Assembly: GCA_013287965.1 (NCBI GenBank)
Contig: JABDCU010000004.1
Coordinates: 13,503-77,502 of the forward strand
From: Candidatus Omnitrophota bacterium
GTDB taxonomy: Bacteria > Omnitrophota > Gorgyraeia > Zapsychrales > Fredricksoniimonadaceae
Direction: 5' to 3'
Length of the DNA: 64,000 nt
How positions within the stretch are numbered: position 1 is the stretch's first letter; each line of letters begins with the position of its first letter. The position numbers and the translations under genes were made by a program. Shown in pieces: positions 1,911-40,344 of this stretch. The notes under the pieces were generated by a model that saw only the letters and a list, made by a program, of their open reading frames with translations, did no database searches and had not been told where the DNA came from.

Positions 1911-4900
1911 TTACCCCTCTAAAAACGCCCTCAAATCCGTCATAGGCTGAATGCTAATGATCACCGGCACAAAGCCAGGCGCATTTTGCAGTTGTGCCAG
2001 CTGTGTGGGGTCAAGATGAAACTGAATCTCCCCATTGCCGTCCCCTTTGACCTCCAACGGCGTCCTGCCGGCAGTAAAATCAATACCACCTTGTCTATGT
2101 ACTTTAACAGCCATCGTCCGGCCCATTCCCTCATTTTTCCCCACCGCCATGGCCCGGTCGGCAAAACCGCCAACTTCAATTTCTTTTGTTAGCTTTTCAA
2201 CACGACCAATTTCTTTATTTCTCAATACAATAATATTCCCTGTTGGGAATTCCACAACGATCTCATCATTTACTTTTATAGGCACCTTATTTGACGGGCC
2301 AGAAATTCCCTCAACTTGATAGTGTTGCTTTCCTACTTTCTTTAAAGAGATCAAAACTTCCTCGCCATCAAAAGATGCCCGTACATCCCCCACATTCTCC
2401 CTCTTAAAAAACCCATCGGCCACCAAGGGATCGTCAATCGGCGTCCATTTTTTCATGCCCTCTGAACCTTTAATACGTACCCGAGCAGGCCATGGGAATT
2501 TTCTATATAACCTATTGGAAAAATACCAACTCAACGCCCTCCAAGTTGACCAACCTGAATTCTTAAGCTGTTTCCCTGATATCCGAACGGCCTGTATGAT
2601 ATAAAATAACGCGGCTTCAGCCCCGCCGCTATTTGCAAAACGCTTGATCGTACCTTCATGAGCTGAATATGGCCAAAAATCTCCCATCCGCCAATCACCA
2701 TTTTGACTTTTAACCAGTGTAACAGTTTTTCCCTGGCTAAAATTCTCGAACGATGGACTCCTGATATTTTGCGCTCGAGAATAAAAATAGAGGTTCAGTT
2801 CATATTCATATGGTTCATTACGCGCCCGATATTCCATGGCATAAATAAACCCTTTGCGCGTTTCTCCTGGCTTAAGCTCAACATCATTGCGTAACCGGTA
2901 TTGACCAAACTTGAAAACTTGTGACACTCCTTTTTTTCCCGTGACCAAAAAGCTCTGCCTGGGATCAGCGATAAGAACACCTGGTGTTAAAATAGCTGAC
3001 GCCTTCATCGCCCGGTCCATTCCCTCATTTCTACCCGCCGCCATGCTCCAATCCGAAACAGAATCGCTTAATCTTTCTTGGATACGCTCTTTAATTTCTT
3101 CATACCTCATTTTAGATAATAAATCTTTTAATACTTTCATCCTCTGACGCAAGGAAGATTCTAATGTTAGCATGTCCCCTGCCTGGTATTGCTCTCTCAT
3201 TGAACGGTATATATTTCTGTCTCCAATGTAATATTCAACCTTAAAATAAGATTTGGCAAGATCAGCCAAGGGAGCTTCCGTAATAGTTTTATCATCCAAT
3301 TGTAATAGGGCTTTAAGTTGATTAATTTGTACTTCATCACTGCCATTAAAATTAAGCAGAATATCCAGGAGTATTTTTGCCTGTTCACCAGATCCTGAAA
3401 CAAGCACCAGCTTTAACGCTTCTGATTGAATAACACCATCAATAAAAAAAGGCTCGTCTTTCAATATTTCTACCTGGATCCCTTTTACTTTATTAAACCT
3501 CTTTGCTAACGCTTGTATAAAATCAAGCCATAATTGGCTTTGATACATATTGGTCCCTTCTAAAAGCACATCTATATCTTTCCGGCCGGGACCAAAATAT
3601 CTTCTTCCCCCCACAATGACCGGTCTAACATGGCTTGAGATCGGACGCATAACTTCCTGTAAAACCTCTTCTAACTTTTGTATATTGTCTTCTTTCTTAG
3701 TGAAATCATAATAATCTTCCGCTCTTTCTGTTGCAGGATCATCGCTCTTCATCGCCCGGTCCATTCCCTCATTTTTATCCGTCACCATGGCCAGGTTGAC
3801 AAAGTCGCCAACTTCAATTTTCTTTGTTAGTATTTCTACACGGCCGATCTTTTTGTTCTGAAATACAATATCCCCTGTTGAAAAATCCACAACGATATCA
3901 TCGTCTACTTTTATAGGCATGTTGAACGGACCCAAAATATCCTCGACCTGATACCGTTTCTTTCCCTCCTTCTTCAAAGAGATCAAAACTGCCTCACCAC
4001 CAAGGGACGCCTGTACAACCCCTACATTCTCCTTTTTAAAAAAACCATCAGCCACCAAGGGATCATCAATTGAAATCCAATCATTCATGTCCTCTGAACC
4101 TTCAATACGCACTCGCGCGGGCCATGAAAAATTCCTATATAACCTATTATAAAAATACCAACTTAACACTCTCCAAGCCGTGTGTCCTGAATTTTTAAGC
4201 TGTCTCCCTGAAATGTTCACAGCCTGCTCAATGTAGGACAATATAACTTCGGCCCCGCCGCTTTTCGCAAAACGATTGATCGTTCCATCATCTCTCGAAT
4301 ATGGCCAAAAATTAGTCATTTGCCAGTCATCTCCTGAATCCTTATCAACTTGGACATATTTAAAATTATTAAACGAGAAAGGATCAGTATCTTTCTTTTG
4401 AGAAGAAAGAATAAAACGCAATTCATATCTTTTAGAATAAAGATTCTCAAGGGCATAAATGATCCCTTTACGTGTTTCCCCCGGCTTAGGCGTAACATCC
4501 TCCCGCAATTGGTAAGTACCCAATTCAAAAATCTGCGATTGGCCAATTTTCCCAGAGACCAAAATGCTTTTCCTTGGATCTGCAATAAGAACACCTGGCA
4601 TTAAATCAGCCGACGTTTTCATCGCCTGATCTAATTTAGGCTGGAGCTTTCTTCGGCCATCCCTTGGTTTAATATGACTGGCCCACAAAACAATGGATGT
4701 TCTGGAGCGTGCTACTCCATACTTTCGCGCTACTTTATTTATTGTCTTTTTAAGGGTCTTGTATCTTTTTTTCTTTGCCATGGACAATAATGCCTCCATC
4801 TCTGGCGATATGTCCTGGGAGCCTTTAGTTGAAATACCAAGGGCCTTCAAAACTGAGTGGACTATAGAATTTGAAACATTATATTTCTTTGCTATTTGCC

Positions 4901-7900
4901 GCTCAGTTTTATCAATGGACTTCACATTTTTTTCATGTAACTTTTTTGCCCATTTTAAGAATTTTCTTATTTCCTTTGATGGCTCCGGGCTTTTGCGGCT
5001 GCTTGCTTGAATCTCCAAGACTCGCAAAATAACATTGATTGATGTTTGCGCAACTTCAAATTTGTTTGCTATCTGTTGCGGTGTCATTTTAGTGGTCTTG
5101 CTCTTTTTCTTTTGGGCCCATGTGAGCGCTTTTTTCATATTGGGGGATGTCGTCCAGCCTTTTGTCTTAATGCTGTACACCAAACATACAACGTTGACTA
5201 TTTCCCGGCTTACTTTAAACCTCTTTGCCAACTCCATCCCGGTCATGTTCACAGACCTGCCTTCCCTTTTTTCTGCCCAGGACAAGAACCCTTCCTGCCC
5301 GGTCTTTGCCTTGGGGCTGATCTTATAAATCATGGCCAGGTCTTTGGGAGCAGCCAATTGGGCGCTGTTTTCTGTAAGCTTGACCTTGGAAACCAATTCA
5401 AACAACTGTTCCGCTCCAAGGGAAGGTATAAGTCTGGCCTGCCTGTTCCTTATCATATGAATTTGTTTTTCAACCTTATTGTCATCACCGCGCCGCATTG
5501 GAAAACTGTCTATTTTACACACCGTCCCATCAGCCCTGTCCTTTATTAAATCGCCCTTCCCCCACTTTTCCGGATTTTGATCATCAGCGCCAGCTGGAAC
5601 GAAATACTCCTGGTCCTTGCTTAAATTCTCTACATGAGGCACCGTGTCCCTCTTAATGCCATTCTCTAACATATCTAAGATGCTCTGGGTAAACGGGCCA
5701 TCCGGCCAATTATCACCCCCTTGATCATAAATTTTCCGATAATAGACGAGCGACAATTGTTTTAGTGTTTTATTCGAAGGCACTAATAACTCCGCGTCTA
5801 CGATCCAGGCCCCAAGCTCTCCATTCAAATATCCAACTACGATATTAGAAGAAATTTGTGCGTCGAGCAGTTCCAAATGGTTTTTGACGAGTCTTATAAA
5901 AAGATCCTGTACAAGTTCCAAATATCGTCTATTTACCTGCTGTTGGGATAATAACTCATGTAGAGACTTCGTGCCATCTACCGGCTTGATCCGGGTAACG
6001 GCAATGACCCCATGCCCACTGATTGTTCCTATGGCAAACGGCGGGACAACTCCCTTTTCAAGCCCCAATACAAACCCCTGCTTTTCATTTTCTATTTCTT
6101 TATTATCCCTCTCCTCTTCATTGATCATCCTAAAAACAAAACCGCTCCAAGGGCCTTCATTAAAAATTAAAATCAAAGATTGTCCTTCAGACATGACCAC
6201 TGATTTATTCCCATCCGGATCGACCAATTCATGCGCTTTTTCAGAATATTTAAACCGCTCAAAAGGAATCACCATCGCCCGGTCCGCTGGTTTGATCTCA
6301 AGGGCTAAATTCCTACCCTCCTTATGTTGTATGGCAAGCAATGCATCTTGTACGCCCGCTGCTTGCAACCTTGTCCTGTTAAGAGGCACCCAGCTCGACA
6401 TGCCCGCCAATTTAAAAATAACACCAAATGGTTTACCCATCACCGATGCCAAATGCATCATCCCCCCTTCAACCGTCAACACATAATTTGAATAGCTGAC
6501 GAAATATTTAAACATTTCCGGATTGAGTGATGGCCCAGGGGCGATCGCAATACCTCCCCGATTACTTTTGGAGACTTGATCAACTAATTCTTCCGCTATT
6601 TTCCTTGTTCCCCAGGGCGTATCATTGGGCAAAAGAACAACCTTATAATCATTACTTACTAATTTTTCTATAATACTCACTAACTCTTGCTGATCTTTCT
6701 TGCTGCGGGAAAACCCCTTGCTTTCCATTCCTCCTCCATACGGATTTAATGAAACAACCGGGTATTTATACTTATGCCCGATCAATGGGTTTCCAATCTG
6801 CTCCATCAAATGGCCCCATTGTTCCTTGAACCGGGCGTTAGGGGTCCCGTTGACCAAAAATTCTGTACCTTCTTTTTTCAAGGGCAGTCCCAACTCTGCA
6901 TTTAGCCTTGAATATACCTCATGGATATTAAATTCCCAAGGCACAGAATCATCCAAATTCAATCGGTCAGCATAATCCTGTCCATTGACCCGGATTCTTT
7001 CAAATATTAAACTCCCTACATCTGCATGATGAGCATGGATATTTAAGAAAGCATTCTTACCTATATTGCTTACCCTGAAATTTTCTTCCAAATCATTGTT
7101 AAAGGAAATCGTATTGCCGTAAAAATCAATAACAGCATCGTAATGCTCCCTGGCCCCATCAATCTGCCAATGTGTTCTGGCCAAATCCTGCATTGGAATA
7201 ATCTTGACCCTTGGATGGTTGTATAAATAAGGACGTCCCGTGATCACCGTTACCTCCAAATCCGGGTTGAAGCCCAATAATCCCTGAATTAAAGAAGCTG
7301 TTCGGACCAATTCATCCCCTTGCCCATCTTTAATGTTATGGATAATTAATATATTCTTTCTCCCATACTTTAAGTGGTTTTCTATTAACCCATGCAAGCT
7401 GAACAGCCCTCTGTTCCTGATGATACCCTCAGCTTGCTGTTGGACCAAAGAGGATGCCCGGGGATTGGTCGTGATGTAATATAAAAAATATCTAAAGTTC
7501 CGGTCCTCCTGATATACCTTGCTGATGTCTTCCAGCACAGGGACCGTTAAATCCTCCGGGTGTTTTAATGCAAACGGCTCCAAACCTTTTATTAAAATAT
7601 CCTCTCTTTCTTGATACGTTAATCCTAAACCTAACAATGATAGTACAATCCTATAAAAATTATTCCCTTCATCCTCTGACATGGCACTTATCAACTCTGA
7701 AAATCCAGCTTTATTAAAATAGTCACTCAATATGACAAACGGATCATCCCACATAAAATAGGCCCCTGTTGTGCCCAGAATGTCCTTATTAAATAATCCC
7801 TGTGTCCTCATCAAATCGATCGCCTTTGATATTGCCATGGATTCCGGGGTTTTATCACCCAATAATACTCCCTGTATTTTCCTGAATAAAGGCCGTGCTT

Positions 7901-9533
7901 TAGAAAAATTATGTTGGCTCCAAACTCTTAATACCCGTAACCGTATACCTACGCCATAATCATGGTTGGTGACAATTTGTTCCATATATTCATCGCCCAA
8001 GTAATCCGCATGGTCCAACACAAAACTCACTATCACTCTTGCCCAACGGCTATTATGTTCAGCCGACAATGCGTCTTTCAACAACCTGCCTATTAAATCA
8101 GAAGTCAACGGAAACCTTGTCGCGATCCCATAGATACCTCTAAAATACCAGTCTACGTCTTGCCCCTTGATGATTTTTCTTTCTATCAAATTCAAATAAG
8201 ATCCAATAAGAAAATCATTTGCTTGATGGGGAATGGTCAGCATGACCCCTATGATCAAATTTCTCCCTACCGGTTTCATTATTCTTCTCCAGAGAACGGA
8301 ACCAATATAGGTGTTTTTTATCTCCAAAGGGGACATTGCCCAATCAATGCCGCCTGAAAAATACTTTCTGGGAGTGATTTGCTGCGTTAGCGGGTCTTGG
8401 TCTTCTTTGATGTAGTTGTAGACGCCTTTTTTGAAGGCTTTTAGGTATTGCTGGTAGATAAATTCGACGTTGTCCTGGGAATGGATTCCCGCGAGCAACT
8501 GCGAGTGTCGGTCAATACGACCTTTCGCGGGAATGACAGTAGAAGCATATTGAATGCCGGCGACTTTATTTTTATCCGCATAGACTTGCGCCAGGATGCT
8601 GTCTTTGATCTTCTTTTTATACCAAGTGGCTAAGATCAAGCTGTTGTAAACTTGGCGAAGCTGGGCGAAGTTGCGGCCGCTGTTGACTTCCTTTGTTAAC
8701 TCGGGAATTACTATTTCGCGGACGATTTGGGAACCTAAAGCATTCACGTCATTCTGAGGCGAAGCCGAAGAATCTTTAGATGTCTTAAGATTCTTCGCTT
8801 CGCTCAGAATGACGGGGTTCTTTTGGATGACAATATTTTTTTCAAGCGCAAGGTAATCTTGCTCAAGCATGACTTTTAATTTGGCTTCTACCACATAGGC
8901 TGTGCCAGCTTTGGCATTTTCGTAGACCACGGCTTTTTCAGGGATGATCCAGACCTTATTGAATGTGTTAACAGGGATATTGGTCGTGCCAAATTTCTTG
9001 GCGGCTTCTTGGTAGATGCGTTTCCAGAATTTTTTGCCTGTTTCGCCTTCAGGATAAATTAGGCTCGCGGTGATCTGTTTGAGCATGTAATCCTCTGCTA
9101 AGAGGTCGCGGCCCATTTCGGTGAGGCCAAAGCTATTAGGAATAATGCGGTTTTTTTCGTAAGGTGAGAGATTGACCCAGAGGTCTTTTTCCGGGATGGT
9201 TAAAGAGGCCAAAAAATATTTAATAAGTTTGGTGGCTTCGGTTTGGATTCCCGCTTTCGCGGGAATGACAGTGGAACTACCTTGGTCCAAAATGAAATCA
9301 AAGCGGAATGGATTGTCGGGATGGACTTTTAGGCCTTTGAGGATCGGTGGGTTGAATTCCGGACTTAAAGGAACCATTATCCCGGGTGCAGGCAAACGAA
9401 ACTCCTGCGCTTGAGCCAAGGGCATGGGGCCGCAAGAATTTAATATAAATGATATTAAAATGATAAAAGATTGCCAGGGCCTATAAAACTGGCCTCGCAA
9501 AGACATATAGCTGCGCATAGTGAAAGTATGCAC
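1911..9533 (-). CDS. giant secreted multidomain protein (2540 aa): shared N-domain, GT9 heptosyltransferase-like domain, weak kinase-like region, 4x HTH-like repeats, duplicated 290-aa module flanking an NTase-like module, shared C-terminal domain
   Basis: A single uninterrupted ORF with an N-terminal hydrophobic segment (SFIILISFILNSC). Residues 55-400 align by eye with residues 50-350 of the 43365..47072 protein. Residues 725-1045 (nt 6399..7361) carry GT9-like motifs (NILIIHNIKDGQGDELV; LTVEGGMMHLASVMGKPFGVIF). Residues 1929-2176 contain GGRRYFGPGRKDIDVLL (G-x-n-DxD). The C-terminus reads GGIDF...LQNAPGFVPVIISIQP. Confidence 0.85.
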   Translation of the reverse strand: MHTFTMRSYMSLRGQFYRPWQSFIILISFILNSCGPMPLAQAQEFRLPAPGIMVPLSPEFNPPILKGLKVHPDNPFRFDFILDQGSSTVIPAKAGIQTEATKLIKYFLASLTIPEKDLWVNLSPYEKNRIIPNSFGLTEMGRDLLAEDYMLKQITASLIYPEGETGKKFWKRIYQEAAKKFGTTNIPVNTFNKVWIIPEKAVVYENAKAGTAYVVEAKLKVMLEQDYLALEKNIVIQKNPVILSEAKNLKTSKDSSASPQNDVNALGSQIVREIVIPELTKEVNSGRNFAQLRQVYNSLILATWYKKKIKDSILAQVYADKNKVAGIQYASTVIPAKGRIDRHSQLLAGIHSQDNVEFIYQQYLKAFKKGVYNYIKEDQDPLTQQITPRKYFSGGIDWAMSPLEIKNTYIGSVLWRRIMKPVGRNLIIGVMLTIPHQANDFLIGSYLNLIERKIIKGQDVDWYFRGIYGIATRFPLTSDLIGRLLKDALSAEHNSRWARVIVSFVLDHADYLGDEYMEQIVTNHDYGVGIRLRVLRVWSQHNFSKARPLFRKIQGVLLGDKTPESMAISKAIDLMRTQGLFNKDILGTTGAYFMWDDPFVILSDYFNKAGFSELISAMSEDEGNNFYRIVLSLLGLGLTYQEREDILIKGLEPFALKHPEDLTVPVLEDISKVYQEDRNFRYFLYYITTNPRASSLVQQQAEGIIRNRGLFSLHGLIENHLKYGRKNILIIHNIKDGQGDELVRTASLIQGLLGFNPDLEVTVITGRPYLYNHPRVKIIPMQDLARTHWQIDGAREHYDAVIDFYGNTISFNNDLEENFRVSNIGKNAFLNIHAHHADVGSLIFERIRVNGQDYADRLNLDDSVPWEFNIHEVYSRLNAELGLPLKKEGTEFLVNGTPNARFKEQWGHLMEQIGNPLIGHKYKYPVVSLNPYGGGMESKGFSRSKKDQQELVSIIEKLVSNDYKVVLLPNDTPWGTRKIAEELVDQVSKSNRGGIAIAPGPSLNPEMFKYFVSYSNYVLTVEGGMMHLASVMGKPFGVIFKLAGMSSWVPLNRTRLQAAGVQDALLAIQHKEGRNLALEIKPADRAMVIPFERFKYSEKAHELVDPDGNKSVVMSEGQSLILIFNEGPWSGFVFRMINEEERDNKEIENEKQGFVLGLEKGVVPPFAIGTISGHGVIAVTRIKPVDGTKSLHELLSQQQVNRRYLELVQDLFIRLVKNHLELLDAQISSNIVVGYLNGELGAWIVDAELLVPSNKTLKQLSLVYYRKIYDQGGDNWPDGPFTQSILDMLENGIKRDTVPHVENLSKDQEYFVPAGADDQNPEKWGKGDLIKDRADGTVCKIDSFPMRRGDDNKVEKQIHMIRNRQARLIPSLGAEQLFELVSKVKLTENSAQLAAPKDLAMIYKISPKAKTGQEGFLSWAEKREGRSVNMTGMELAKRFKVSREIVNVVCLVYSIKTKGWTTSPNMKKALTWAQKKKSKTTKMTPQQIANKFEVAQTSINVILRVLEIQASSRKSPEPSKEIRKFLKWAKKLHEKNVKSIDKTERQIAKKYNVSNSIVHSVLKALGISTKGSQDISPEMEALLSMAKKKRYKTLKKTINKVARKYGVARSRTSIVLWASHIKPRDGRRKLQPKLDQAMKTSADLMPGVLIADPRKSILVSGKIGQSQIFELGTYQLREDVTPKPGETRKGIIYALENLYSKRYELRFILSSQKKDTDPFSFNNFKYVQVDKDSGDDWQMTNFWPYSRDDGTINRFAKSGGAEVILSYIEQAVNISGRQLKNSGHTAWRVLSWYFYNRLYRNFSWPARVRIEGSEDMNDWISIDDPLVADGFFKKENVGVVQASLGGEAVLISLKKEGKKRYQVEDILGPFNMPIKVDDDIVVDFSTGDIVFQNKKIGRVEILTKKIEVGDFVNLAMVTDKNEGMDRAMKSDDPATERAEDYYDFTKKEDNIQKLEEVLQEVMRPISSHVRPVIVGGRRYFGPGRKDIDVLLEGTNMYQSQLWLDFIQALAKRFNKVKGIQVEILKDEPFFIDGVIQSEALKLVLVSGSGEQAKILLDILLNFNGSDEVQINQLKALLQLDDKTITEAPLADLAKSYFKVEYYIGDRNIYRSMREQYQAGDMLTLESSLRQRMKVLKDLLSKMRYEEIKERIQERLSDSVSDWSMAAGRNEGMDRAMKASAILTPGVLIADPRQSFLVTGKKGVSQVFKFGQYRLRNDVELKPGETRKGFIYAMEYRARNEPYEYELNLYFYSRAQNIRSPSFENFSQGKTVTLVKSQNGDWRMGDFWPYSAHEGTIKRFANSGGAEAALFYIIQAVRISGKQLKNSGWSTWRALSWYFSNRLYRKFPWPARVRIKGSEGMKKWTPIDDPLVADGFFKRENVGDVRASFDGEEVLISLKKVGKQHYQVEGISGPSNKVPIKVNDEIVVEFPTGNIIVLRNKEIGRVEKLTKEIEVGGFADRAMAVGKNEGMGRTMAVKVHRQGGIDFTAGRTPLEVKGDGNGEIQFHLDPTQLAQLQNAPGFVPVIISIQPMTDLRAFLEG
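2106..3005 (-). repeat. internal protein module copy B (aa 2177-2476) of the giant gene
   Basis: Aligns over its full length with aa 1639-1928. Examples: PGVLIADPR, KPGETRKG, NSGGAE, QLKNSG, PWPARVRI.GSE, IDDPLVADGFFK.ENVG, EVLISLKK, IGRVE.LTK.IEVG. Confidence 0.85.
3750..4619 (-). repeat. internal protein module copy A (aa 1639-1928) of the giant gene
   Basis: Paralogous to 2106..3005. Both copies end in a NEGM(D/G)R(A/T)M linker. The linker DNA at 3003..3030 is 28/28 identical to 3747..3774. Confidence 0.85.
4668..5291 (-). repeat. four tandem ~50-aa HTH-like repeats inside the giant protein (aa 1415-1622)
   Basis: Repeat pattern is L.WA.K......MT..qIAkKf.VS.s.V..vL...I. The four cores are MELAKRFKVSREIVNVV, QQIANKFEVAQTSINVIL, RQIAKKYNVSNSIVHSVL and NKVARKYGVARSRTSIVL. 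Confidence 0.7.
8483..8538. repeat. 56-nt long form of the GGATTCCCGC...GCGGGAATGACA palindromic element, in-frame inside the giant gene
   Basis: The first 27 nt and last 13 nt are identical to the copy at 48778..48833. It encodes VIPAKGRIDRHSQLLAGIH. The paralog at 43365..47072 lacks about 21 residues at exactly this point. Confidence 0.85.
8749..8813. repeat. second palindromic element family (GTCATTCTGAG.CGAAGC.GAAGAATCTT / inverted copy), in-frame inside the giant gene
   Basis: The arms are 8749..8777 and 8787..8813. They are reverse complements apart from two extra bases in the left arm. Encodes VILSEAKNLKTSKDSSASPQNDV in a segment that does not align with the paralog. Confidence 0.75.
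9245..9270. repeat. 26-nt REP-like hairpin GGATTCCCGCTTTCGCGGGAATGACA, in-frame inside the giant gene
   Basis: 8-bp stem ATTCCCGC/GCGGGAAT with a 4-nt loop. Encodes VIPAKAGIQ (aa 89-97). Confidence 0.85.
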
Positions 9534-9598: not shown

Positions 9599-11029
9599 TT
9601 AAAACATCCCCTTTTGGGCGAGGTAATCGTGCAGCTGCCACCAGGCATCATTGGCCTGTTTGCAGGTCATTCCTAACCGATGGACCATAAAATAACGTTC
9701 ATGATAGTTGCGCCGGTGGAAATACAATAAAAATTCCTGCCAATCCTGCTGTGTCTTAAGCTGTTCCGCTTTTTCTTTGACCCAATAATCAAACAGGCCC
9801 TTACTCTCTTGAGGATAGATCGTAAAATATTGATACGCTAACACCCCGCCGCATAATATCCCTGCCATGGCCAGCGCTGGCCATATTGCCGCCAGGTATT
9901 GGCCGGCAGACCACCACATAAACCCGGTAAATAACATCATAAACGGCCACGAGCCGCATATGCGCAAGGCATGAGGCAATTCCTGGTTGGTCAATGCCGA
10001 CGGGATGATCCCGATAAAAAAATTAGCGGCTAAGAATAAAAGCCAACGGCGGTTCTTGACCACCGGATTATCATTCCAAGAAGGACGCAAAAAGGCCAAT
10101 ACTAAAAACACGATTAAAATGATCAAGGCCGCGATATCAAGACCGCTGAATAATCCTAAATGCCTGGTTGAATGCACATAGGAAGGGTCTCCGGTCAGAA
10201 AAAGAAAATCAGGGCTTAAATGTAAAAGATAATTGTGGGTAAAAATACCGGCAATGTCCCAAGGGTTGCCGGTTTTCCCCAAGGAATGCAGATAATCCTT
10301 ATTAAAGATGCTGATCAAATTAAAACGCCGGCCCAATGGGCCATTCAAATAATTGGCTGCCAACGGGAGCAAGGACAAAATAAATACCACCGTCAAACTT
10401 AAAACAGATTGCCAACGCACAGAACGCCGGCCCCATTCATAGGTCCCAAGCGTTACCATCATTAATGGTATTTGCATCCGTGCCGGCGGATAGGCATACA
10501 TGGACAATGCCAAAAGAAAACCTGCCAGCGCCCAATCCCACCAAGCGCCGGAACGCCAAAAAAAATAAAGACCCCAAACAGCGAAAACCGGGGCCGCATA
10601 CGATTCCAGGGCGACACGGGTCACAACCCAAGCCCAAGGCGAACACGTGGCTGCCAAAACAACCGCCGCGGCAAAAGACTTGCCGAATAATTGTTTGCTT
10701 AAGAAAAATAATCCCAGGATGCCGATCAACAAAACAAAGACACTATAGCCCCTTAAACTGGGGACAGTTGACCCAAATACTTTTACCCAAAGGATGCCCG
10801 GATAAACATAGGTCGGCGGCTTGTCCTGGCCGTATTGCATAAAAGCAAATAAGGGCCAGGGTTTTAGCTCAGCATCACATCCGGATTCCGCAAAACACTG
10901 CATGGTGACGGCAGAGCCGACTTCATCCACATGATAACCATAAGGAATGGAGTCGAGTTTCCCGAAGCGCAGGACATTCAATACTAAAACCGTTAAAATA
11001 ATAAAAACTAAAGCAATTTTCTTAAACAT
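9599..11029 (-). CDS. polytopic membrane glycosyltransferase, GT-C fold (ArnT/PMT-like)
   Basis: 476 aa with roughly 11-12 hydrophobic segments. An early-loop acidic motif (YGYHVDEVGS) is typical of GT39/GT83 enzymes. A polyprenol-phosphate GT2 gene lies adjacent. Confidence 0.6.
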   Translation of the reverse strand: MFKKIALVFIILTVLVLNVLRFGKLDSIPYGYHVDEVGSAVTMQCFAESGCDAELKPWPLFAFMQYGQDKPPTYVYPGILWVKVFGSTVPSLRGYSVFVLLIGILGLFFLSKQLFGKSFAAAVVLAATCSPWAWVVTRVALESYAAPVFAVWGLYFFWRSGAWWDWALAGFLLALSMYAYPPARMQIPLMMVTLGTYEWGRRSVRWQSVLSLTVVFILSLLPLAANYLNGPLGRRFNLISIFNKDYLHSLGKTGNPWDIAGIFTHNYLLHLSPDFLFLTGDPSYVHSTRHLGLFSGLDIAALIILIVFLVLAFLRPSWNDNPVVKNRRWLLFLAANFFIGIIPSALTNQELPHALRICGSWPFMMLFTGFMWWSAGQYLAAIWPALAMAGILCGGVLAYQYFTIYPQESKGLFDYWVKEKAEQLKTQQDWQEFLLYFHRRNYHERYFMVHRLGMTCKQANDAWWQLHDYLAQKGMF

Positions 11030-15074: not shown

Positions 15075-16082
15075 TCACAGTGTTCTTAGAAATTGTACCA
15101 GATTTACATTGTCATGCCAACGTTTTACTGGCTTAGATTCAATATCACAAAAAGCCAGCGCCCTTGCTTTCATTTCAAGGTCAGTTTCAGCATAAATATT
15201 GGTCGTATTGATAGAAACATGCCCCAGCCAAGCTCGTATAGTATTAATATCAACTCCAGATCGTAAGAGATGTGTGGCAGTTGTATGCCGAATTGTATGA
15301 GGGCTAACTCGTTTAAGCTTCAGAGAGGGGACTCTCTCTGAGGCTTTTAGAGCATAACGTTCAACCAAGGTATAAATGCCAAAACGCGTAATAGGCTGTT
15401 TACAACGATTAAGAAAAACATGTTCTTTAACATCCCGCCCTTCTATAAGCAACCGTATTTCCTTTACAGTTTGAGACCATAACGGACAACTGCGAAGCTT
15501 ATTCCCCTTTCCACGAATAACTACTGATGAATAATTACGGCCTGGCACATGAGCCAAATTAAGGTCAGCAATGGTAACTTGAGCCGCTTCGTCGGCACGA
15601 ACTCCGGTGTTGTAAAGAAAAAGAAGAAGCGCATGGTCACGCTGTTTTTGAGGTGAAGTACATTCGGCAGCTCCAAGTAAAGCATCCATTTCCATTTTCT
15701 CAAGATAAGGAATTAATGCATGAGGAGCTCTCTTGAAAGGGATGGCCATGATCTGTCCAGACCACTGAATATGCTCAGGACTATAAAGTCCAATAAACTG
15801 AGCCAGTGAATGAATAGCTCCCAAACGTTGATTACGGGTTGTGATGCTTGAATGACGTGTCTTTTCAAGATCAAGAAGAAAAAGTAATACGTGCTCCCTC
15901 GAAACATCTTCGATCAAAAGTTGATCAATATTTTTTCGTGTCTGAGAGGCAATGAAAGGCAGAAGTAAACACAAAGTATCGCGGTAACTGCGCTGTGTAT
16001 TATATGAAAGATTTTTGACACTGATCAAATATTCCATTAAAAAACGTCTAATCCAAGGGCCAATCAAGCTATGGTTAATCAT
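15075..16082 (-). CDS. ritC: tyrosine recombinase, third gene of the recombinase trio
   Basis: Catalytic signature GVRADE...HTIRHTTATHLL...LGHVSINTTNIYA (R..HxxR..H..Y). The symbol is assigned by position in the trio. Confidence 0.8.
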   Translation of the reverse strand: MINHSLIGPWIRRFLMEYLISVKNLSYNTQRSYRDTLCLLLPFIASQTRKNIDQLLIEDVSREHVLLFLLDLEKTRHSSITTRNQRLGAIHSLAQFIGLYSPEHIQWSGQIMAIPFKRAPHALIPYLEKMEMDALLGAAECTSPQKQRDHALLLFLYNTGVRADEAAQVTIADLNLAHVPGRNYSSVVIRGKGNKLRSCPLWSQTVKEIRLLIEGRDVKEHVFLNRCKQPITRFGIYTLVERYALKASERVPSLKLKRVSPHTIRHTTATHLLRSGVDINTIRAWLGHVSINTTNIYAETDLEMKARALAFCDIESKPVKRWHDNVNLVQFLRTL

Positions 16083-16083
16083 T

Positions 16084-17022
16084 TCAAGCCTCCTTTAAAG
16101 TATATTGTTCAAAACGATGTCCTGCTTCTTCAAGTAATGCGGGTGTCATAGTAAGATAAACAGAAGTAGCAGCCAATGTGACATGTCCCAAGTAAACAGA
16201 CAACATCAGTACAAGATTTTGTACATCTGCCCCTTCTTTATATAAAGCAGTTAGACGATGAACTGCAAAAGTGTGGCGTAGATCATGAATGCGTGGCTGT
16301 TGATCACTATCAAGACGCCTAATATTCACTTTTTCACGGATACGTCTAAAATTTTCCCCGACAGCAGGTTGCTTAACGGCTTTTCTGTTTCTCCCTATAA
16401 AGAACGAAGATTGAGGATCTTGGGAATATTTTTTCTGCTTACGCCAAGAAACGTACTCTTGTAAAACCTGAGTCAATTGTTCACCAATAGGAACAAAACG
16501 TGACTTATAAAATTTCGTTTTCCGAATTGTGAGCAATGATTGATTCAAATCAACATCAGCCAATTTTAAAGAAATAGCTTCCCCAATTCGTAAACCACTT
16601 CCATATAAAAGTAATAAAATTGTACGCATCGTATAAGGTGAAATCCTACTATTAATTTTGTGATGAGTAAAACAGCCATTAATTAAAGCCTTAACTTCTT
16701 CAGTACTGTAAATATATGGTAAAAATCGTGGGGGCTGTTTCGGTATTACCAGTGGCAAAAGTGAAGTATCCGCATATCCTCGGCTGATTACATACTTATA
16801 AAAACCACGTAATGCGCTATGTCTAACATGCCAACTTCTAGTAACGGCAAAAGTCCCTCCTGTAAGAAAACTAATTACGGAATCAGGTTTCACTTCGGAA
16901 AGTTCAATCCCTGGCTCCAAGGTCCGAACAAAAGCTTTTAGTCTCCAGGAACCACTTTCAAAGGATTCACCAAGTGATTTTCGATAATTTATATATTGAT
17001 CAACTAACGTTAAAAGCTTCAT
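16084..17022 (-). CDS. ritB: tyrosine recombinase, second gene of the trio
   Basis: Catalytic signature GLRIGEA...IHDLRHTFAVH...LGHVTLAATSVYL. It starts 4 nt inside the upstream gene. Confidence 0.8.
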   Translation of the reverse strand: MKLLTLVDQYINYRKSLGESFESGSWRLKAFVRTLEPGIELSEVKPDSVISFLTGGTFAVTRSWHVRHSALRGFYKYVISRGYADTSLLPLVIPKQPPRFLPYIYSTEEVKALINGCFTHHKINSRISPYTMRTILLLLYGSGLRIGEAISLKLADVDLNQSLLTIRKTKFYKSRFVPIGEQLTQVLQEYVSWRKQKKYSQDPQSSFFIGRNRKAVKQPAVGENFRRIREKVNIRRLDSDQQPRIHDLRHTFAVHRLTALYKEGADVQNLVLMLSVYLGHVTLAATSVYLTMTPALLEEAGHRFEQYTLKEA

Positions 17023-18266
17023 AGCACACCCCCTAAATTAAAATTGGCGACTTCCCGAAGTTTCGTAAGATTTACCTTCGTATAAACACGCGTTGTTTCC
17101 AAGTCACGGTGTCCCAGCTGGTCTGCAATAGTCTTAAGTGGAACTCCTTGATTAATTAAACGACTAGCACAAGCATGACGCAAAGAATGCGTGCCATGTT
17201 TCTTAATATCAACACCTAGTCGCCTCCAACGGGCATAAATTAGCGAAGCCAATCCTTTTAAAGGACGAAAAGGTGCGCGGAAAGTCAGAAAAATCTCACC
17301 ATACGAAACGCATTGGGGACGAGTTTTTGTAATATATTCCAACAATGCATCTGCTACGGTTTGACTAAGTGGAAATTGTTGTGCAGGCCCACGCTTCGAG
17401 TGTTTAAGACAAAAAGTTCTTTGTTTCCAATCAATATCCTCCAATCGTAATTGTCGAACTTCACTGGCACGAAAACCGTATACTGCCAAGAATAAAATGA
17501 TGGCTCGGTCACGAATGTCCAAAGGACGTTCCCCTTCTGTTGTTTTGACAAGACGTTGAATTTCTTCTAAAGAGAGTCCAGTGGGAAGCGCATCATGTCT
17601 ATATACACGCGGAGAGTTAATAGAATCTACTATTCCACAAGGACACCAGTTCCGATGCTCAGCATAACGAAGAAAACTTCGTAAAATTGACATTTGATTC
17701 TTTATAGTGCGACGAGCATATAGTCCTCGACTGAGTTCTTTAATCAAAATTGTATCAATATGCGCGGGGATGAGGTTAGCAAGGAAATGCTCAAGATCTT
17801 CTTTGGTTTTGCTAAAGAACTGTACCAATATAAAGCGACGAGTATAAATCGTTGCCTCAGATAGCCCCTTCTCTTTTCGCATGTAATTAACATACTCTTT
17901 CAACTGCCAGGGGATTCTTTGTTTTGGATCTTCAAGCCGATCCAAAAATTTCAACCAAATCTTAATATCACTAATAAAACGGTAGCCACGAGAAGAACAA
18001 GAAAAGTCTTTACGACCAAACTTTAACATTTCATCACGTAGCCAACGCCTGGTTGCGTCTTTAATTTCTTTAATCGTTATAATTCGATCATTATCAATAT
18101 TAAGATATTTAGTCGCGATATATTGATAACGAGCAATTTCACGGAGTGCTAACCACCCACTCCCTCGTTCGGCACGATAAGTAAGATACCGTAAGCGATC
18201 CTCTAACAGAGAAGCGTTACGTAGACGCTTTATGGTTCCAGGTTTCTCAAAAAGTTTCTCAAACAT
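17019..18266 (-). CDS. ritA: tyrosine recombinase, first and longest gene of the trio
   Basis: 415 aa with GFRASEV...THSLRHACASRL...LGHRDLETTRVYT. The extended N-terminal domain fits the first member of a RIT trio. Confidence 0.8.
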   Translation of the reverse strand: MFEKLFEKPGTIKRLRNASLLEDRLRYLTYRAERGSGWLALREIARYQYIATKYLNIDNDRIITIKEIKDATRRWLRDEMLKFGRKDFSCSSRGYRFISDIKIWLKFLDRLEDPKQRIPWQLKEYVNYMRKEKGLSEATIYTRRFILVQFFSKTKEDLEHFLANLIPAHIDTILIKELSRGLYARRTIKNQMSILRSFLRYAEHRNWCPCGIVDSINSPRVYRHDALPTGLSLEEIQRLVKTTEGERPLDIRDRAIILFLAVYGFRASEVRQLRLEDIDWKQRTFCLKHSKRGPAQQFPLSQTVADALLEYITKTRPQCVSYGEIFLTFRAPFRPLKGLASLIYARWRRLGVDIKKHGTHSLRHACASRLINQGVPLKTIADQLGHRDLETTRVYTKVNLTKLREVANFNLGGVL

Positions 18267-36654: not shown

Positions 36655-36687
36655 ATAACTGCCCGTATTTTGATTACGGGCAGTTAT
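36655..36687 (-). terminator. 13-bp perfect-stem hairpin ending the Ubl/E1 operon
   Basis: ATAACTGCCCGTA-ttttgat-TACGGGCAGTTAT lies 24 nt after the last stop codon. The tail on the minus strand is only moderately T-rich. Confidence 0.5.
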
Positions 36688-36710
36688 ATTAAAATTGATT
36701 CCTTATGATT

Positions 36711-36917
36711 CTATGAATTCTTTCGCAGATCACTGAGGGAATCTTTTCCGGTCTTCTTTAATACATTCTCAAGCTTTGCATCGCTACGGACGCCAGACAG
36801 AAAATCTGGCCCATAAGTATGCCTAAGAGTTCCAACTAAGGTGTTGCCATTCTTCCGACGGATTTCTCCGTCTTCATCACGGCTACGGCCATCAAGGCCC
36901 CTTGAATGTTTATTCAT
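36711..36917 (-). CDS. small basic hypothetical protein, last gene of the Ubl/E1 operon
   Basis: 68-aa ORF rich in R/K/D/G. No motif recognised. It is co-directional with the operon and lies upstream of the hairpin. Confidence 0.45.
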   Translation of the reverse strand: MNKHSRGLDGRSRDEDGEIRRKNGNTLVGTLRHTYGPDFLSGVRSDAKLENVLKKTGKDSLSDLRKNS

Positions 36918-36978
36918 TTCTTTATACCTCCTTCCTTTTAGACTTATAGCATTGATTTAAAAGCATAGACTCTGTTTT

Positions 36979-37335
36979 TTATTTTTCACTTTTGCTTTTA
37001 TTTTTGTAATATTCCTTTTTAATCAATTCATCACACTTTCTAGCCCGCTCAATTTGACTTTTAGTCCAATTAGGTGCCCTCTGTACCCTGCTGTTTGTAA
37101 TAAAATAATGTGATTGGCACTTAAAACTCCAATTCCCAATCGAAGGATATAAAGACACAGTCTCCCCGTCATAAATCAACTTCCAATCAGTCGGGGAGAG
37201 CGGCGTCACAACTTCTTCCCCACAGCCACAACAGCATTTATGAATTACTGTTGAATATTCGATGGAAATATACAAAACGCCATCTTCCAATTTGTCCGGG
37301 GCATGCTTTATAAATTTGTGCGTCAATTTAATCAT
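36979..37335 (-). CDS. Cys-rich small protein resembling DUF6527 (putative Zn-binding partner of prokaryotic E1/Ubl systems)
   Basis: 118 aa with a HKCCCGCGEE cluster and a distal KCQSHYFI (C/H ligand pattern). 8-nt overlap with the E1 gene. Confidence 0.65.
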   Translation of the reverse strand: MIKLTHKFIKHAPDKLEDGVLYISIEYSTVIHKCCCGCGEEVVTPLSPTDWKLIYDGETVSLYPSIGNWSFKCQSHYFITNSRVQRAPNWTKSQIERARKCDELIKKEYYKNKSKSEK

Positions 37336-38494
37336 TTATCACTTTATTTACATTGGTTTCATAAATCGAATGACTCTCTGCTGTGAGGTCATGATAAAAA
37401 TTAAAATATTTTTTCCACTTAATAACAGCTATAGCCGCATTTAATGCATTCAACTCGACTATTTGAATATTCTTATTGTATTCATTTTCCCCTTCATCAG
37501 TGAATGGTATTCTTAACTCAATGTGATCATTCTTTTCTTTAGTGACCAGTGTCGTGCGCACACTCCCACTTACCTTCCCATTCTCAAGGTTAACACCCAT
37601 ACCTACATCAATGAAAGGAATCAATAGCCCAGTAAGTTTCTGAACAATTAACTTCCTTGCATCCCCTTTATCAATGCAAATAAAGACAAAATCCATCGAT
37701 AGAAGCTCGTCGAATACCGCAGGTGTTACATAACAATCATGGGGTACAACATGCTTATGAATATTGGAGTACATATCGCTATAATAATTGACCTTCTTTA
37801 GCATCTGCCTCAATGTTTCAACCGAAGCGGCGGCAGGAGCCCGAAATGCGTTCTTTGAAACAAAAATGTCACCATCAAAAAGGTGAATTTCTTTAACCGG
37901 CGTTTTAGCAATAAAGTCAAGAATATAGGAACCTGCGCCCCCTAACCCTATAATGACGACCTTTAAGTCCCTTAATTCTTTAGTAACGACCTCAAGTTCA
38001 ATACAACTTGGACTTGGATTTAAATATTTAAAGACAACATCTTGCTCTTTAGACTCGATCACCTTACCTGTCCTCGCGGTAACAACTGGATTCAATGCCT
38101 GCGCCTGGGACTCCAGATGCGAAACGTAAGTTTCAATTTTTTCAAAATAATCCGGGTAATTGCCGCTGGGTGGTTTTGCCGAAAAATAATGGTCAGCTAC
38201 TACCCCATAGCCCAGATCCTTTTTTACGCTGTTGTTAACTATTGCATTAAGGATGGATCCATCTTTATCACATGGAGAGTCGCCCTTAAAGTATATGGTA
38301 TGGTCAGCCGGACCAAGGAGCTGCTCCCCAGAAATATTTAAAAGACATACCAAAGTTCCGGGGCTAATCTCTTTATTAGTATTAACGTACGGCACGTTAT
38401 ATACAAGCAAGATAGTGCCTTTAATTTCTATTTCATAGCCCTCAGCACGCAGCCTTTGAAGGTCCGGGCTAAGACTTATCAGTTTTTCTGACAT
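37328..38494 (-). CDS. ThiF/E1-like adenylyltransferase with an unassigned ~170-aa N-terminal domain
   Basis: The C-terminal half has the Rossmann motif VVIIGLGGAGSYILDF, an NLxRQ-equivalent SKNAFRAP, and FVFICIDKGDARKLI...IDVGMG. The N-terminal half has no motif I can name and one notable Cys (GDSPCDKDG). Confidence 0.8.
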   Translation of the reverse strand: MSEKLISLSPDLQRLRAEGYEIEIKGTILLVYNVPYVNTNKEISPGTLVCLLNISGEQLLGPADHTIYFKGDSPCDKDGSILNAIVNNSVKKDLGYGVVADHYFSAKPPSGNYPDYFEKIETYVSHLESQAQALNPVVTARTGKVIESKEQDVVFKYLNPSPSCIELEVVTKELRDLKVVIIGLGGAGSYILDFIAKTPVKEIHLFDGDIFVSKNAFRAPAAASVETLRQMLKKVNYYSDMYSNIHKHVVPHDCYVTPAVFDELLSMDFVFICIDKGDARKLIVQKLTGLLIPFIDVGMGVNLENGKVSGSVRTTLVTKEKNDHIELRIPFTDEGENEYNKNIQIVELNALNAAIAVIKWKKYFNFYHDLTAESHSIYETNVNKVIND

Positions 38495-38747
38495 TGAAAA
38501 TCATCCCTTCCTTGACTTTGACGCTTTGGCCCTTGGTCAAAGACCCTTCATGTTTCGGATCATGGCCTTTTATATATGTTACAGAGTATAGAACGTTTGG
38601 ATTATCCACATATGTGCTGAAAGCAAGTATGATAACTTCTTCGTATGTGATTTCCTTTTTGTCCCAGGCCTTGATACGTGTGTTAACGATGATCTCAACT
38701 TGCTGATGATGCTCTTCGTGGTGGTGTTCATGTTTTTCATGGTTCAT
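38469..38747 (-). CDS. ubiquitin-like beta-grasp protein of the multiubiquitin type, with a His-rich N-terminal tail
   Basis: The start is set at MNHEKHE, preceded by AGGAGG 6 nt upstream. The ORF track starts at 38774. The tail reads HEKHEHHHEEHH. The body, VEIIVN...KEITYEEVIILAF...YSVTYIKG...EGSLTKGQSVKVKEGMIFNV..TDKS, resembles Multiubiquitin-family sequences as I remember them. Confidence 0.65.
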   Translation of the reverse strand: MNHEKHEHHHEEHHQQVEIIVNTRIKAWDKKEITYEEVIILAFSTYVDNPNVLYSVTYIKGHDPKHEGSLTKGQSVKVKEGMIFNVRKTDKS

Positions 38748-38765
38748 ACTTACCTCCTGGGTTAT

Positions 38766-38784
38766 TTTACGCAACTTGCGTAAA
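38766..38784. promoter_or_regulatory. perfect 9-1-9 palindrome TTTACGCAA-c-TTGCGTAAA just upstream of the Ubl RBS
   Basis: Read directly from the sequence. A 1-nt centre rules out an RNA hairpin loop, which favours a dimeric HTH operator. GCGTAA/GCGTAT half-sites recur at 39902..39916, upstream of the XRE gene. Confidence 0.45.
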
Positions 38785-38801
38785 TTGTGATTAAAAAAAT
38801 A

Positions 38802-39527
38802 TCAATGCCATTCTCTCCGACGGGGATCTTCATAACTATTAATCCCATCATGTTCGAGCACAAAATCATCTCCTGGCAAAATCAAAAGTCCTAACGTTTT
38901 CAACCTTAATTCAGCAGACTGCCTGGAAACATCGAAACAGGACACTAAATCCTGTAGCAATGCATTTTGGTTATGTGATTTTGACCTAAACTGTCTGACC
39001 TTTTCTTTAAAAATTGAAACTGGCATTAAGAGCGCCGCCGATCCTCTATTGGCCTGCCATTCAATAAAATCTCTTGTGTTCTGTGATGGAGCAACCGTAC
39101 TTTCCATAAAATGATTTTCAAAACATCTTAATGTGCGATCATCGCCGGCATTACGAAAAAGTTGGCCGTGAAATAAAGAATGAAAAATCTCATGCGCACA
39201 GGTAAAACGAAACCGACCTTTAAATGCCGGTGTATTTCTTTGATGATAAAGAATGGCATTGATCTGAATTAATTTGGATCCATCAGGATTGAACATTGTC
39301 GCACCTAAAATAAACCTTGAAAGTTGGGCCTGGGAATCGAATCCAATATCTTCCTGAGTCAGCGCCTCATCGACGAATCGATCAAGATCAATGGCGGGAT
39401 GAATCATGTTGCAGGCGCCTTTATAAAACTTTAGGTACCTCTCTTCCATGATATCATCGATATCAGCCCCCGAACAAACTAGCCGACATCCATAAGGACT
39501 TTCCTTGTCATCAACCCACTGCATCAT
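38802..39527 (-). CDS. ImmA/IrrE-family (COG2856) zinc metallopeptidase
   Basis: HEXXH motif in CAHEIFHSLFH. The downstream EWQANRGSAALLMP is the typical ImmA/IrrE third-ligand region. Confidence 0.8.
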   Translation of the reverse strand: MMQWVDDKESPYGCRLVCSGADIDDIMEERYLKFYKGACNMIHPAIDLDRFVDEALTQEDIGFDSQAQLSRFILGATMFNPDGSKLIQINAILYHQRNTPAFKGRFRFTCAHEIFHSLFHGQLFRNAGDDRTLRCFENHFMESTVAPSQNTRDFIEWQANRGSAALLMPVSIFKEKVRQFRSKSHNQNALLQDLVSCFDVSRQSAELRLKTLGLLILPGDDFVLEHDGINSYEDPRRREWH

Positions 39528-39892
39528 TTCTTTCCATTTCCTTTTTCAAGTTCTTTATTTAATTTCTGGATAATATCAGAATCTTCAGGTAACTCAGCGA
39601 GACGACGATAAAGAAGCGCCATCTCTGGCTTTTTACTTACGGTTTCTTCAATCAGCGGATCAACCTTTCCCGCCAAATTAAGCAAATCTTGAGAGTCAAG
39701 CTCTAGCTTTTTAGCAAGCTGAACAATGATTTTCCCTCCAGGAGGGTTACGATAACCTTGTTCAATATCATTGAGATACGATACTGAAATTGACTTAAGG
39801 TCATCATTCTTTACTGCATCGCATACTTTTTTTAAACTTAGATTCAGGTGAAGACGCTTGTTCTTGATTTTCTTTCCAAATTCATTTTGCAT
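39524..39892 (-). CDS. XRE-family helix-turn-helix regulator
   Basis: The pattern FGKKIKNKRLHLNLSLKKVCDAV...ISVSYLNDIEQGYRNP fits HTH_3. 4-nt overlap with the ImmA gene. No Shine-Dalgarno sequence, and a TATAAA lies 3 nt before the ATG, so the transcript may be leaderless. Confidence 0.8.
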   Translation of the reverse strand: MQNEFGKKIKNKRLHLNLSLKKVCDAVKNDDLKSISVSYLNDIEQGYRNPPGGKIIVQLAKKLELDSQDLLNLAGKVDPLIEETVSKKPEMALLYRRLAELPEDSDIIQKLNKELEKGNGKK

Positions 39893-40016
39893 ACTTTATA
39901 AGCGTATAGCGTAATCCTCTACTTGTCAAATTAATTTTACCTATTTAATTTACAATGCCCCCTTCCAAATCATTCGTCGATGAATTCAAGTTAGAAAATA
40001 ATACTCCTGCCGAGAT

Positions 40017-40277
40017 TTATTCCTGATCGGCTTCTTTATTTTCTTCCGTTAACTCGATCCTAACTCGTCTGCGATTATGCTTACTATCAGGGACACCCAA
40101 TAATTCTATTAATTCCAAACACAATTGGACAAATGCCTCTTGTTCCGCGAACTCACCTCCCTTTTCTTCAACAACATAACTTTTTGTGACCTCTATTTCT
40201 TTTCTGTCAGCACCTTCCATATAGTCTGGGTAAAATATAATAAAACCGTTGTCTGCCTGCTCTATCGTTATTTTCAT
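40017..40277 (-). CDS. small acidic hypothetical protein
   Basis: 86-aa ORF with no recognisable motif. Confidence 0.4.
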   Translation of the reverse strand: MKITIEQADNGFIIFYPDYMEGADRKEIEVTKSYVVEEKGGEFAEQEAFVQLCLELIELLGVPDSKHNRRRVRIELTEENKEADQE

Positions 40278-40344
40278 TTAGTTCCTTTCCCAGGGCCCAT
40301 CCTGTGGCCAATTGGCTAAAATTTGTTTAATTATGGTGTTAGAA

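Follow-up and report, generated by a model that had tools for sequence, protein, structure and literature searches.

The operons that Iyer, Burroughs and Aravind described as "6E/DUF6527" (6E.2) have been renamed Bub, for bacterial ubiquitination-like, by Ye, Gong, Chambers and Corbett (10.1101/2024.11.21.623953). In the Bub pathway, conjugation runs through oxyester intermediates: the ubiquitin-like protein (Ubl) is carried first on a tyrosine located in the E1's crossover loop and then on a serine of the E2 domain. ATP-dependent Ubl conjugation via oxyesters has been shown for the Escherichia coli and Citrobacter homologues only (10.1101/2024.11.21.623953). Here we describe a compact operon in a 64,000-nucleotide stretch of DNA (the window) from an uncultured Candidatus Omnitrophota bacterium (contig JABDCU010000004.1, positions 13,503 to 77,502). 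We conclude, with a probability of roughly 85%, that this locus is a Type II Bub operon, encoding BubA, BubBD and BubE, and that it is controlled by a CapH/CapP-like regulator pair.

Regulators of this kind are known from the work of Lau et al. (10.1101/2022.04.27.489752): CapH represses the promoter of an adjacent defense operon, and CapP, activated by single-stranded DNA (ssDNA) or DNA damage, cleaves CapH. All of the pairs in that study are divergent from their cargo. CapH and CapP adjoin 168 of 544 Bub operons, or 31% (Ye et al., 10.1101/2024.11.21.623953). The pair is related to DdrO/IrrE of Deinococcus and to ImmR/ImmA.

The operon in the window closely parallels the Type II Bub operon of E. 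coli ZDHYS365. Both contain the same three genes in the same order, and both encode a BubA that ends in TDKS (as in PDB entry 9cd2), a BubBD fusion with the Ser/Lys/His motif of the E2, the adenylation arginine and the crossover-loop tyrosine, and a DUF6527 peptidase that has both a C4 zinc site and a Ser-His dyad; a JAB peptidase is absent from both. The two differ in that BubA of the window has a single beta-grasp domain, whereas that of E. coli has three, and in that the window's BubA carries a short, His-rich N-terminus and a gene of 68 codons (p68) is appended to the operon. Type I Bub, Bil and Type II CBASS (Cap2/Cap3) share with the window the E1 adenylation chemistry, an E2-like carrier, a dedicated deconjugating peptidase, a beta-grasp or C-terminal substrate, and a location in a defense context. 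These three systems, however, use a JAB/JAMM peptidase, which the window lacks. Moreover, Bil and CBASS use cysteine thioesters, a feature not found in the window, and Type I Bub fuses the Ubl to the E2 and JAB to the E1, neither of which fusions occurs here. An earlier interpretation made from the nucleotide sequence alone (the sequence-only reading) had taken the locus for a new variant of a Ubl-conjugation cassette without JAB or a canonical cysteine E2. The composition was described correctly, as our scans found neither domain, but the novelty was not: this is the published architecture of Type II Bub, which typically lacks JAB.

To place the operon among its relatives, we used 80 species-level genome loci (L001-L080) from many bacterial phyla and from archaea. 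We found that bubA, bubBD and bubE were adjacent and co-directional in 78 of the 80 loci, in line with the co-conservation that the sequence-only reading had expected. In nearly all of these 78 loci bubA ends 25 nucleotides past the start of bubBD, so that the same 26-nucleotide overlap recurs across phyla. This overlap (38469-38494 in the window, approximately 6001-6026 in L001-L080) couples the ...TDKS end of BubA to the conserved N-terminus of BubBD (MSxKLIS).

When we scanned the seven proteins of the region against Pfam, BubBD matched DUF6791 (4e-51, residues 10-159) and ThiF (5e-12), with the ThiF adenylation domain extending from about residue 170 to 388; its best NCBIfam model, at 9e-150 over the full length, was PRK06153.1-4, and the best PDB sequence match of its E1 half was Citrobacter BubCD. 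The protein is approximately 45-57% identical to the genome representatives that we retrieved and 87% identical to BubBD of locus L090. We then aligned it with the BubBD proteins of the 80 loci (81 sequences in total; a first alignment comprised the window's protein and 23 database homologues). Residues S105, R218 and Y339 were invariant in 81 of 81 sequences, K107 was conserved in 94% and H102 in 84%, and the glycine-rich ATP motif (G183, G185, G186, G188) and several aspartates of the adenylation site were likewise invariant. The three fully invariant residues correspond to S106 (E2), R219 (adenylation) and Y342 (E1) of E. coli BubBD, mutation of which abolishes conjugation (Ye et al., bioRxiv 10.1101/2024.11.21.623953). 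As judged from this alignment, the adenylation site of BubBD is intact. None of the seven scanned proteins matched a Pfam Prok-E2 or UBC family; the proposal that the N-terminal half of the E1 supplies the E2 function is sustained by the DUF6791 match and by the correspondence of S105, K107 and H102 to the published catalytic Ser, Lys and His.

BubA was recognized by the Pfam family Multi_ubiq (5.4e-18) and by sequence comparison with 9cd2, the structure of BubA from E. coli ZDHYS365 (E=4.6e-11). An AlphaFold2 model built from 23 sequences (pLDDT 83) exhibited beta-grasp topology, and a Foldseek search with this model returned 9cd2 as the best match (E=6e-7, TM 0.72); Citrobacter BubA and further multi-ubiquitin proteins of bacteria came next, and the two BubA structures both ranked within the top four fold matches. 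The sequence-only reading had called this protein a His-tailed beta-grasp protein. The fold stands, but the His-rich stretch belongs to the short, disordered N-terminus. At the other end, single-domain homologues all keep the terminal serine, and in the 79 BubA sequences from the genome loci its conservation is at least 95%. By sequence, then, BubA ends at its conserved C-terminal serine with no propeptide or extension, leaving nothing to trim. Single-beta-grasp proteins (the Ubl1 class) make up 40% of Bub Ubls (Gong et al.). Together with the adenylation site and the conserved gene block, this fold leaves the core of the sequence-only reading standing: the findings that it had named as fatal to that core (no beta-grasp fold, a broken adenylation site, no co-conservation) were not encountered.

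The third protein, BubE, matched Pfam DUF6527 (1.5e-25), and a newer Pfam release labels this family, PF20137, 'BubE'. Residues C34, C36, C38 and C73, which form the C4 zinc site, and the dyad residues S65 and H76 were each at least 95% conserved in 80 sequences, and the arrangement in the window is the published one. Ye et al. (10.1101/2024.11.21.623953) describe BubE as a Ser-His peptidase, stabilized by the C4 zinc site, that strips conjugates. The sequence-only reading had instead given the DUF6527 protein an E2/E3-like role; its identity as BubE, with dyad and zinc site conserved, speaks against that assignment. Because BubE is the dedicated peptidase and deconjugase, the operon needs no JAB. 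Pfam found no JAB match in the seven scanned proteins, and no recurrent JAB cluster appeared among 573 open reading frames (ORFs) that we collected from around 78 related Bub loci and clustered. In 2 of the 78 loci, a gene approximately 2.4 kb away encodes a protein with a RadC/JAB-like HNHPSG motif, noted by eye. Separately, in 5 of the 78 loci a gene downstream of bubE, mostly on the opposite strand, encodes a protein of approximately 560-680 amino acids, which may belong to a neighboring defense gene; its representative in L061 (7806-9842) contains a cytidine/dCMP deaminase domain.

Upstream of the bub genes lie an XRE-type helix-turn-helix (HTH) protein and an ImmA/IrrE-type (M78) peptidase. 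The first matched Pfam HTH_3 (2.3e-6) and PHROGs families of transcriptional regulators and repressors (5e-7 and weaker), and it shares the HTH fold class with the capH family. The second matched Pfam Peptidase_M78 (9e-10) and the PADLOC capP model (3.7e-15); its match in the PDB to an IrrE orthologue, 8slm, was weak (E=0.03). The labels XRE, ImmA, ThiF/E1 and DUF6527 given in the sequence-only reading were thus all upheld by family profiles, at E-values well outside what chance would give. We found that M78 peptidases formed the dominant cluster among the neighboring ORFs: a member bearing HExxH lay within 3 kb upstream of bubA, our criterion for this survey, in 51 of the 78 loci. At best, representatives of this cluster reached 1e-59 against capP and 5e-23 against Peptidase_M78, and HTH_3 proteins were encoded by the adjacent ORFs. 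From these results, we conclude that the XRE/ImmA pair is associated with this BubBD clade in the manner of a regulator.

A different role for the peptidase had been put forward, namely that an ImmA-type metallopeptidase replaces JAB as Ubl-processing enzyme or deconjugase while DUF6527 serves as E2/E3. We regard this as very improbable. It would account for a Type II Bub system without JAB and for the striking frequency of M78 peptidases beside this clade; in addition, the peptidase activity of BubE in vitro is reported to be extremely weak, and Ye et al. had themselves weighed a role in Ubl transfer for BubE before they tested it (10.1101/2024.11.21.623953). However, the S92A/H102A mutants of BubE restore conjugates in cells, which identifies BubE as the deconjugase (10.1101/2024.11.21.623953), and the invariant serine at the end of BubA leaves a processing enzyme without a propeptide to remove. 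In the neighborhood survey, which the sequence-only reading had proposed as a check, ImmA/XRE genes co-occurred with Bub and no recurrent JAB cluster appeared; 27 of the 78 loci had no HExxH-bearing M78-like peptidase in the 3 kb upstream of bubA. Moreover, 40 of the 51 peptidase genes are transcribed divergently and have an HTH partner, the layout that regulators would show, and 11 are co-directional. Other Bub operons carry the unrelated CapW or CapK/CapS at the same position (PMC13373217), and the demonstrated substrate of CapP is CapH (10.1101/2022.04.27.489752). Finally, in locus L089 (1-1604) we found a CapP that is 92% identical to that of the window over all 241 residues and is followed by the operator half-sites and then, instead of Bub, by a CBASS oligonucleotide cyclase (PADLOC Cyclase, 1e-36; Pfam NTP_transf_2, 1.1e-5; SMODS below threshold). 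Since so similar a CapP, together with these half-sites, stands before a cyclase of CBASS, we conclude that CapH/CapP and its putative operator are a portable regulator cassette, and that the peptidase is not a Ubl-processing enzyme.

Two palindromes in the window are candidates for the CapH operator. The first, O1, lies within the upstream region of capH (approximately 125 bp) and departs from TTACGC-N5-GCGTAA at 2 positions; the 64-kb window as a whole would be expected to contain about 1.5 matches of this quality. The second, O2, overlaps a promoter-like site (38791 to 38764), and only 0.15 matches with at most 3 mismatches are expected by chance in the window. Its sequence is present in L090 except for the central base, which is C in place of G. 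In L089 the TTACGC-N5-GCGTAA half-sites are kept, and DNA homology to the window stops directly after the palindrome, which suggests that cargo was swapped at the operator. Three co-directional loci from other phyla (L005, L006 and L007) have TAAGC...GCTTA palindromes upstream of capH as well as in the gap from capP to bubA. From these sequences we predict two operators for CapH: one would serve autoregulation, and the other would lie at a bub promoter inside the operon. Such an arrangement parallels the two-site layout that chromatin immunoprecipitation has shown for CapK/CapS (PMC13373217).

These sites also bear on the possibility that the bub genes have the XRE/ImmA pair beside them by chance, the pair being a remnant of the immunity module of a prophage or of an integrative and conjugative element (ICE). 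Mobile elements commonly use XRE/ImmA pairs as induction switches, the same pair was seen here with other cargo, and PHROGs holds related families. We nevertheless give this explanation very little credence, for no phage or ICE genes lie nearby, and capP and bubA are on the same strand with a gap of 54 nucleotides that contains an operator-like palindrome related to the one upstream of capH. In addition, the association recurs across phyla in the 51 loci described above and is also published (10.1101/2024.11.21.623953). Least probable of all, to the point of being nearly negligible, is that the operon makes up a ThiF/ThiS- or MoeB/MoaD-type system for sulfur carriage or cofactor biosynthesis instead of protein conjugation. 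The C-terminal half of BubBD does match the NCBIfam models for ThiF, MoeB and TcdA, but weakly and at scores that fall far short of each cut-off. The full-length PRK06153 match outranks them, BubBD has an E2-like N-terminal domain, the operon includes a dedicated peptidase, the Gly-Gly terminus typical of sulfur carriers is missing from BubA, no thiamine or molybdopterin genes adjoin, and homologues form protein conjugates (10.1101/2024.11.21.623953).

Several observations weigh against our assignment of the locus as a Type II Bub operon under a CapH/CapP-like pair. The locus is known from its sequence alone, all catalysis being assigned by homology, and phage protection has so far been demonstrated for none of the Bub operons (PMC13373217). 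In our PADLOC scan (cut-off E<=0.1), CapH matched HTH_VI (3e-5) and, weakly, HEAT-ARM_XIII (0.021), but not the capH model; it had no PDB sequence match. The capP profile was matched only at positions 45-152 of 242, the peptidase core, by residues 75-211 of the 241 in the window's protein, and profile searches detected no domain in the 74 residues before this stretch or the 30 after it. Characterized CapP has a GAF-type sensor domain that thus seems, by sequence, to be missing here, and a different signal may activate the protein. Pair and cargo run in the same direction instead of diverging, and a promoter scan found no consensus -10 element upstream of capH. The last such point concerns Cys75 of BubBD (38270-38272), part of an HPC motif and kept in 79 of 81 sequences (97.5%), which the oxyester model leaves unexplained. 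The mutagenesis of Ye et al. (10.1101/2024.11.21.623953) backs serine as the E2 nucleophile, the family is described as working without catalytic cysteines, and the passages of that preprint that were searched do not mention Cys75. The position of this cysteine, the lone one that the sequence-only reading had singled out as notable, resembles the HPN motif of classical E2s.

Set beside the pairs of Lau et al., that of the window is alike in its adjacent XRE HTH and M78 HExxH genes upstream of a defense-type operon, in its match to the capP model, in the palindromic operator candidates at promoters, and in the near-identical pair that fronts a CBASS cyclase in L089. It differs in its orientation relative to the cargo, in a peptidase with an N-terminal extension of approximately 75 residues and, it seems, no GAF-like domain at its C-terminus, and in having two operator-like sites, one of them inside the operon. 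Because of the co-directional arrangement, the capP match confined to the core and the generic HTH matches of CapH, we label the pair CapH/CapP-like and do not claim for it the ssDNA-sensing mechanism.

By analogy with the characterized systems, we propose the following mechanism. CapH dimers bound to the two related palindromes, O1 just upstream of capH and O2 in the gap between capP and bubA, would repress the operon until DNA damage or ssDNA from a phage activated the CapP metallopeptidase. Cleavage of CapH by CapP would then allow transcription of the operon. A BubBD dimer would adenylate the C-terminal carboxylate of BubA by means of the glycine-rich ATP site and R218; BubA would move to the crossover-loop Tyr339 as an oxyester, then, helped by K107 and H102, to Ser105 of the N-terminal E2-like domain, and finally onto lysines of target proteins. 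BubE, as a zinc-stabilized Ser65-His76 peptidase, would take BubA off these targets. Every residue position named in these conjugation steps is conserved here.

The features of the locus are collected in Table 1. An ORF check of the window confirmed what the sequence-only reading had reported of the layout: six ORFs run in one direction on the minus strand at 36711-39892, with overlaps of 4, 26 and 8 nucleotides, and the quoted motifs and the 13-bp hairpin are all present.

Table 1. Features of the Type II Bub locus and its surroundings in the window (aa, amino acids; nt, nucleotides; RBS, ribosome-binding site).
Feature	Position	Strand	Remarks
p86, acidic ORF directly upstream of capH, same direction	40017-40277	-	86 aa
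Candidate CapH operator O1, imperfect palindrome TTACGCTATACGCTTAT	39898-39914	-	between TTGACA hexamer (39924-39929) and capH ATG
capH-like XRE HTH repressor	39524-39892	-	122 aa; 4-nt overlap with capP
capP-like ImmA/IrrE (M78) zinc metallopeptidase	38802-39527	-	241 aa; HEIFH and EWQANRGSAALLMP
Candidate CapH operator O2, perfect 8+1+8 palindrome TTACGCAAGTTGCGTAA	38767-38783	.	between capP stop and bubA RBS
bubA, single beta-grasp Ubl	38469-38747	-	92 aa from ATG behind AGGAGG RBS
bubBD, E2-E1 fusion	37328-38494	-	388 aa; contains GDSPCDKDG
bubE, DUF6527 serine peptidase	36979-37335	-	118 aa; contains CCCGCG...CQSH
p68, basic protein, last gene before terminator	36711-36917	-	68 aa; own RBS
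Intrinsic-terminator-like hairpin closing operon	36655-36687	-	13-bp stem, 7-nt loop, T-rich tail

p86 is a possible member of the cassette. It was called as a gene on both contigs of the source organism, and it matched no Pfam, NCBIfam, PADLOC or PHROGs family and had no homologue in the 80 Bub loci.

The sequence-only reading had placed the cassette at the end of a mobile island, a setting that we rejected. The immediate neighbors of the cassette are ComF-like, LptF and LptG genes at one end and, at the other, a two-component system with metabolic genes beyond it. The G+C content of the cassette (approximately 36655 to 40330) is 0.389, only mildly lower than the 0.42-0.46 of the flanks, and neither the annotation of neighboring genes nor a recombinase scan of the window revealed phage or ICE genes near it. 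The nearest recombinases, and the only ones in the window, are three adjacent tyrosine-recombinase genes at 15075-18266 on the minus strand (Pfam Phage_integrase, 9e-32, 4e-26 and 2e-31), approximately 18 kb from the cassette; between them and the cassette lie genes for TonB/ExbB, a TonB-dependent receptor and an HtrA-like protease as well as other housekeeping genes. The locus looks like a small defense islet with no visible mobility genes. The recombinase trio itself, which sits in a stretch of lower G+C, resembles a recombinase-in-trio element. Elsewhere in the window, an ORF of 2540 codons (1911-9533, minus strand) had no Pfam match at E<=1e-4 and adjoins a PMT_2 glycosyltransferase-like gene (9599-11029).

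The last gene of the operon, p68, matched no Pfam, NCBIfam, PADLOC or PHROGs family. Its relatives form a family of 66 protein clusters with 55-90% identity, 18 invariant positions and the consensus GLDGRxRDxDGEIRxKRGDTLVGTLRxTYGPDF..., and at least 527 of them occur in metagenome contigs. We considered p68 as a Bub-specific component and rejected the idea: p68 was present in 2 of the 80 Bub loci, and a BubBD-like match was found in 4 of 80 p68 loci, one of which is the window's own contig. p68 is an accessory and not part of the Bub core. In 14 of the 43 loci with enough upstream DNA, an M78 peptidase and an XRE HTH protein, its most frequent neighbors, were encoded upstream, as a rule in divergent orientation, and p68 is often the first gene behind such a pair. 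The contexts in which we found p68 relatives include DUF3892 and YuaX genes behind a divergent XRE/M78 pair, DUF3892 followed by a Bil operon, a conjugative element, and an overlapping downstream nucleotidyltransferase that resembles, by eye, the CBASS-type cyclases. DUF3892 is itself a cargo associated with CapH/CapP (Lau et al., 10.1101/2022.04.27.489752). Relatives of p68 also occur just downstream of response-regulator modules; in one context the product of an adjacent gene is TIR-like by eye, and in L167 a p68 relative is fused to the C-terminus of a 401-amino-acid protein. An AlphaFold2 model of p68, of modest confidence (pLDDT 69), contained three short helices, and a Foldseek search with it against the PDB returned nothing below E=6.8. 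We suggest, with considerable doubt, that the p68 family may be an undescribed recurrent accessory (a sensor, adaptor or co-regulator) of damage-inducible defense operons, and, as a separate and equally doubtful suggestion, that Cys75 of BubBD could have a catalytic or redox-gating function.

Because the Bub system, its JAB-less design and its association with CapH/CapP are already published, the identification of the operon in itself matters little; it adds one example of Type II Bub from an uncultured Gram-negative bacterium. The minor new points are the co-directional regulators with two operator-like palindromes, the recurrence of p68 beside regulators of the CapH/CapP type whose defense cargo varies, and the near-invariant Cys75. 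Co-directional layouts appear to carry two operators, one of them internal, and the regulator is associated with 65% of the loci in this BubBD clade, compared with the 31% reported overall (10.1101/2024.11.21.623953). L089, in which a 92%-identical regulator and the same half-sites precede a CBASS cyclase, illustrates how portable this control is. As residual leads, p68 and Cys75 are small, p68 being the main one. Whether the biological output of Bub is anti-phage defense or a general stress response is a question for the whole family and not for this locus, and this compact operon with its single-beta-grasp Ubl could serve as a minimal model.

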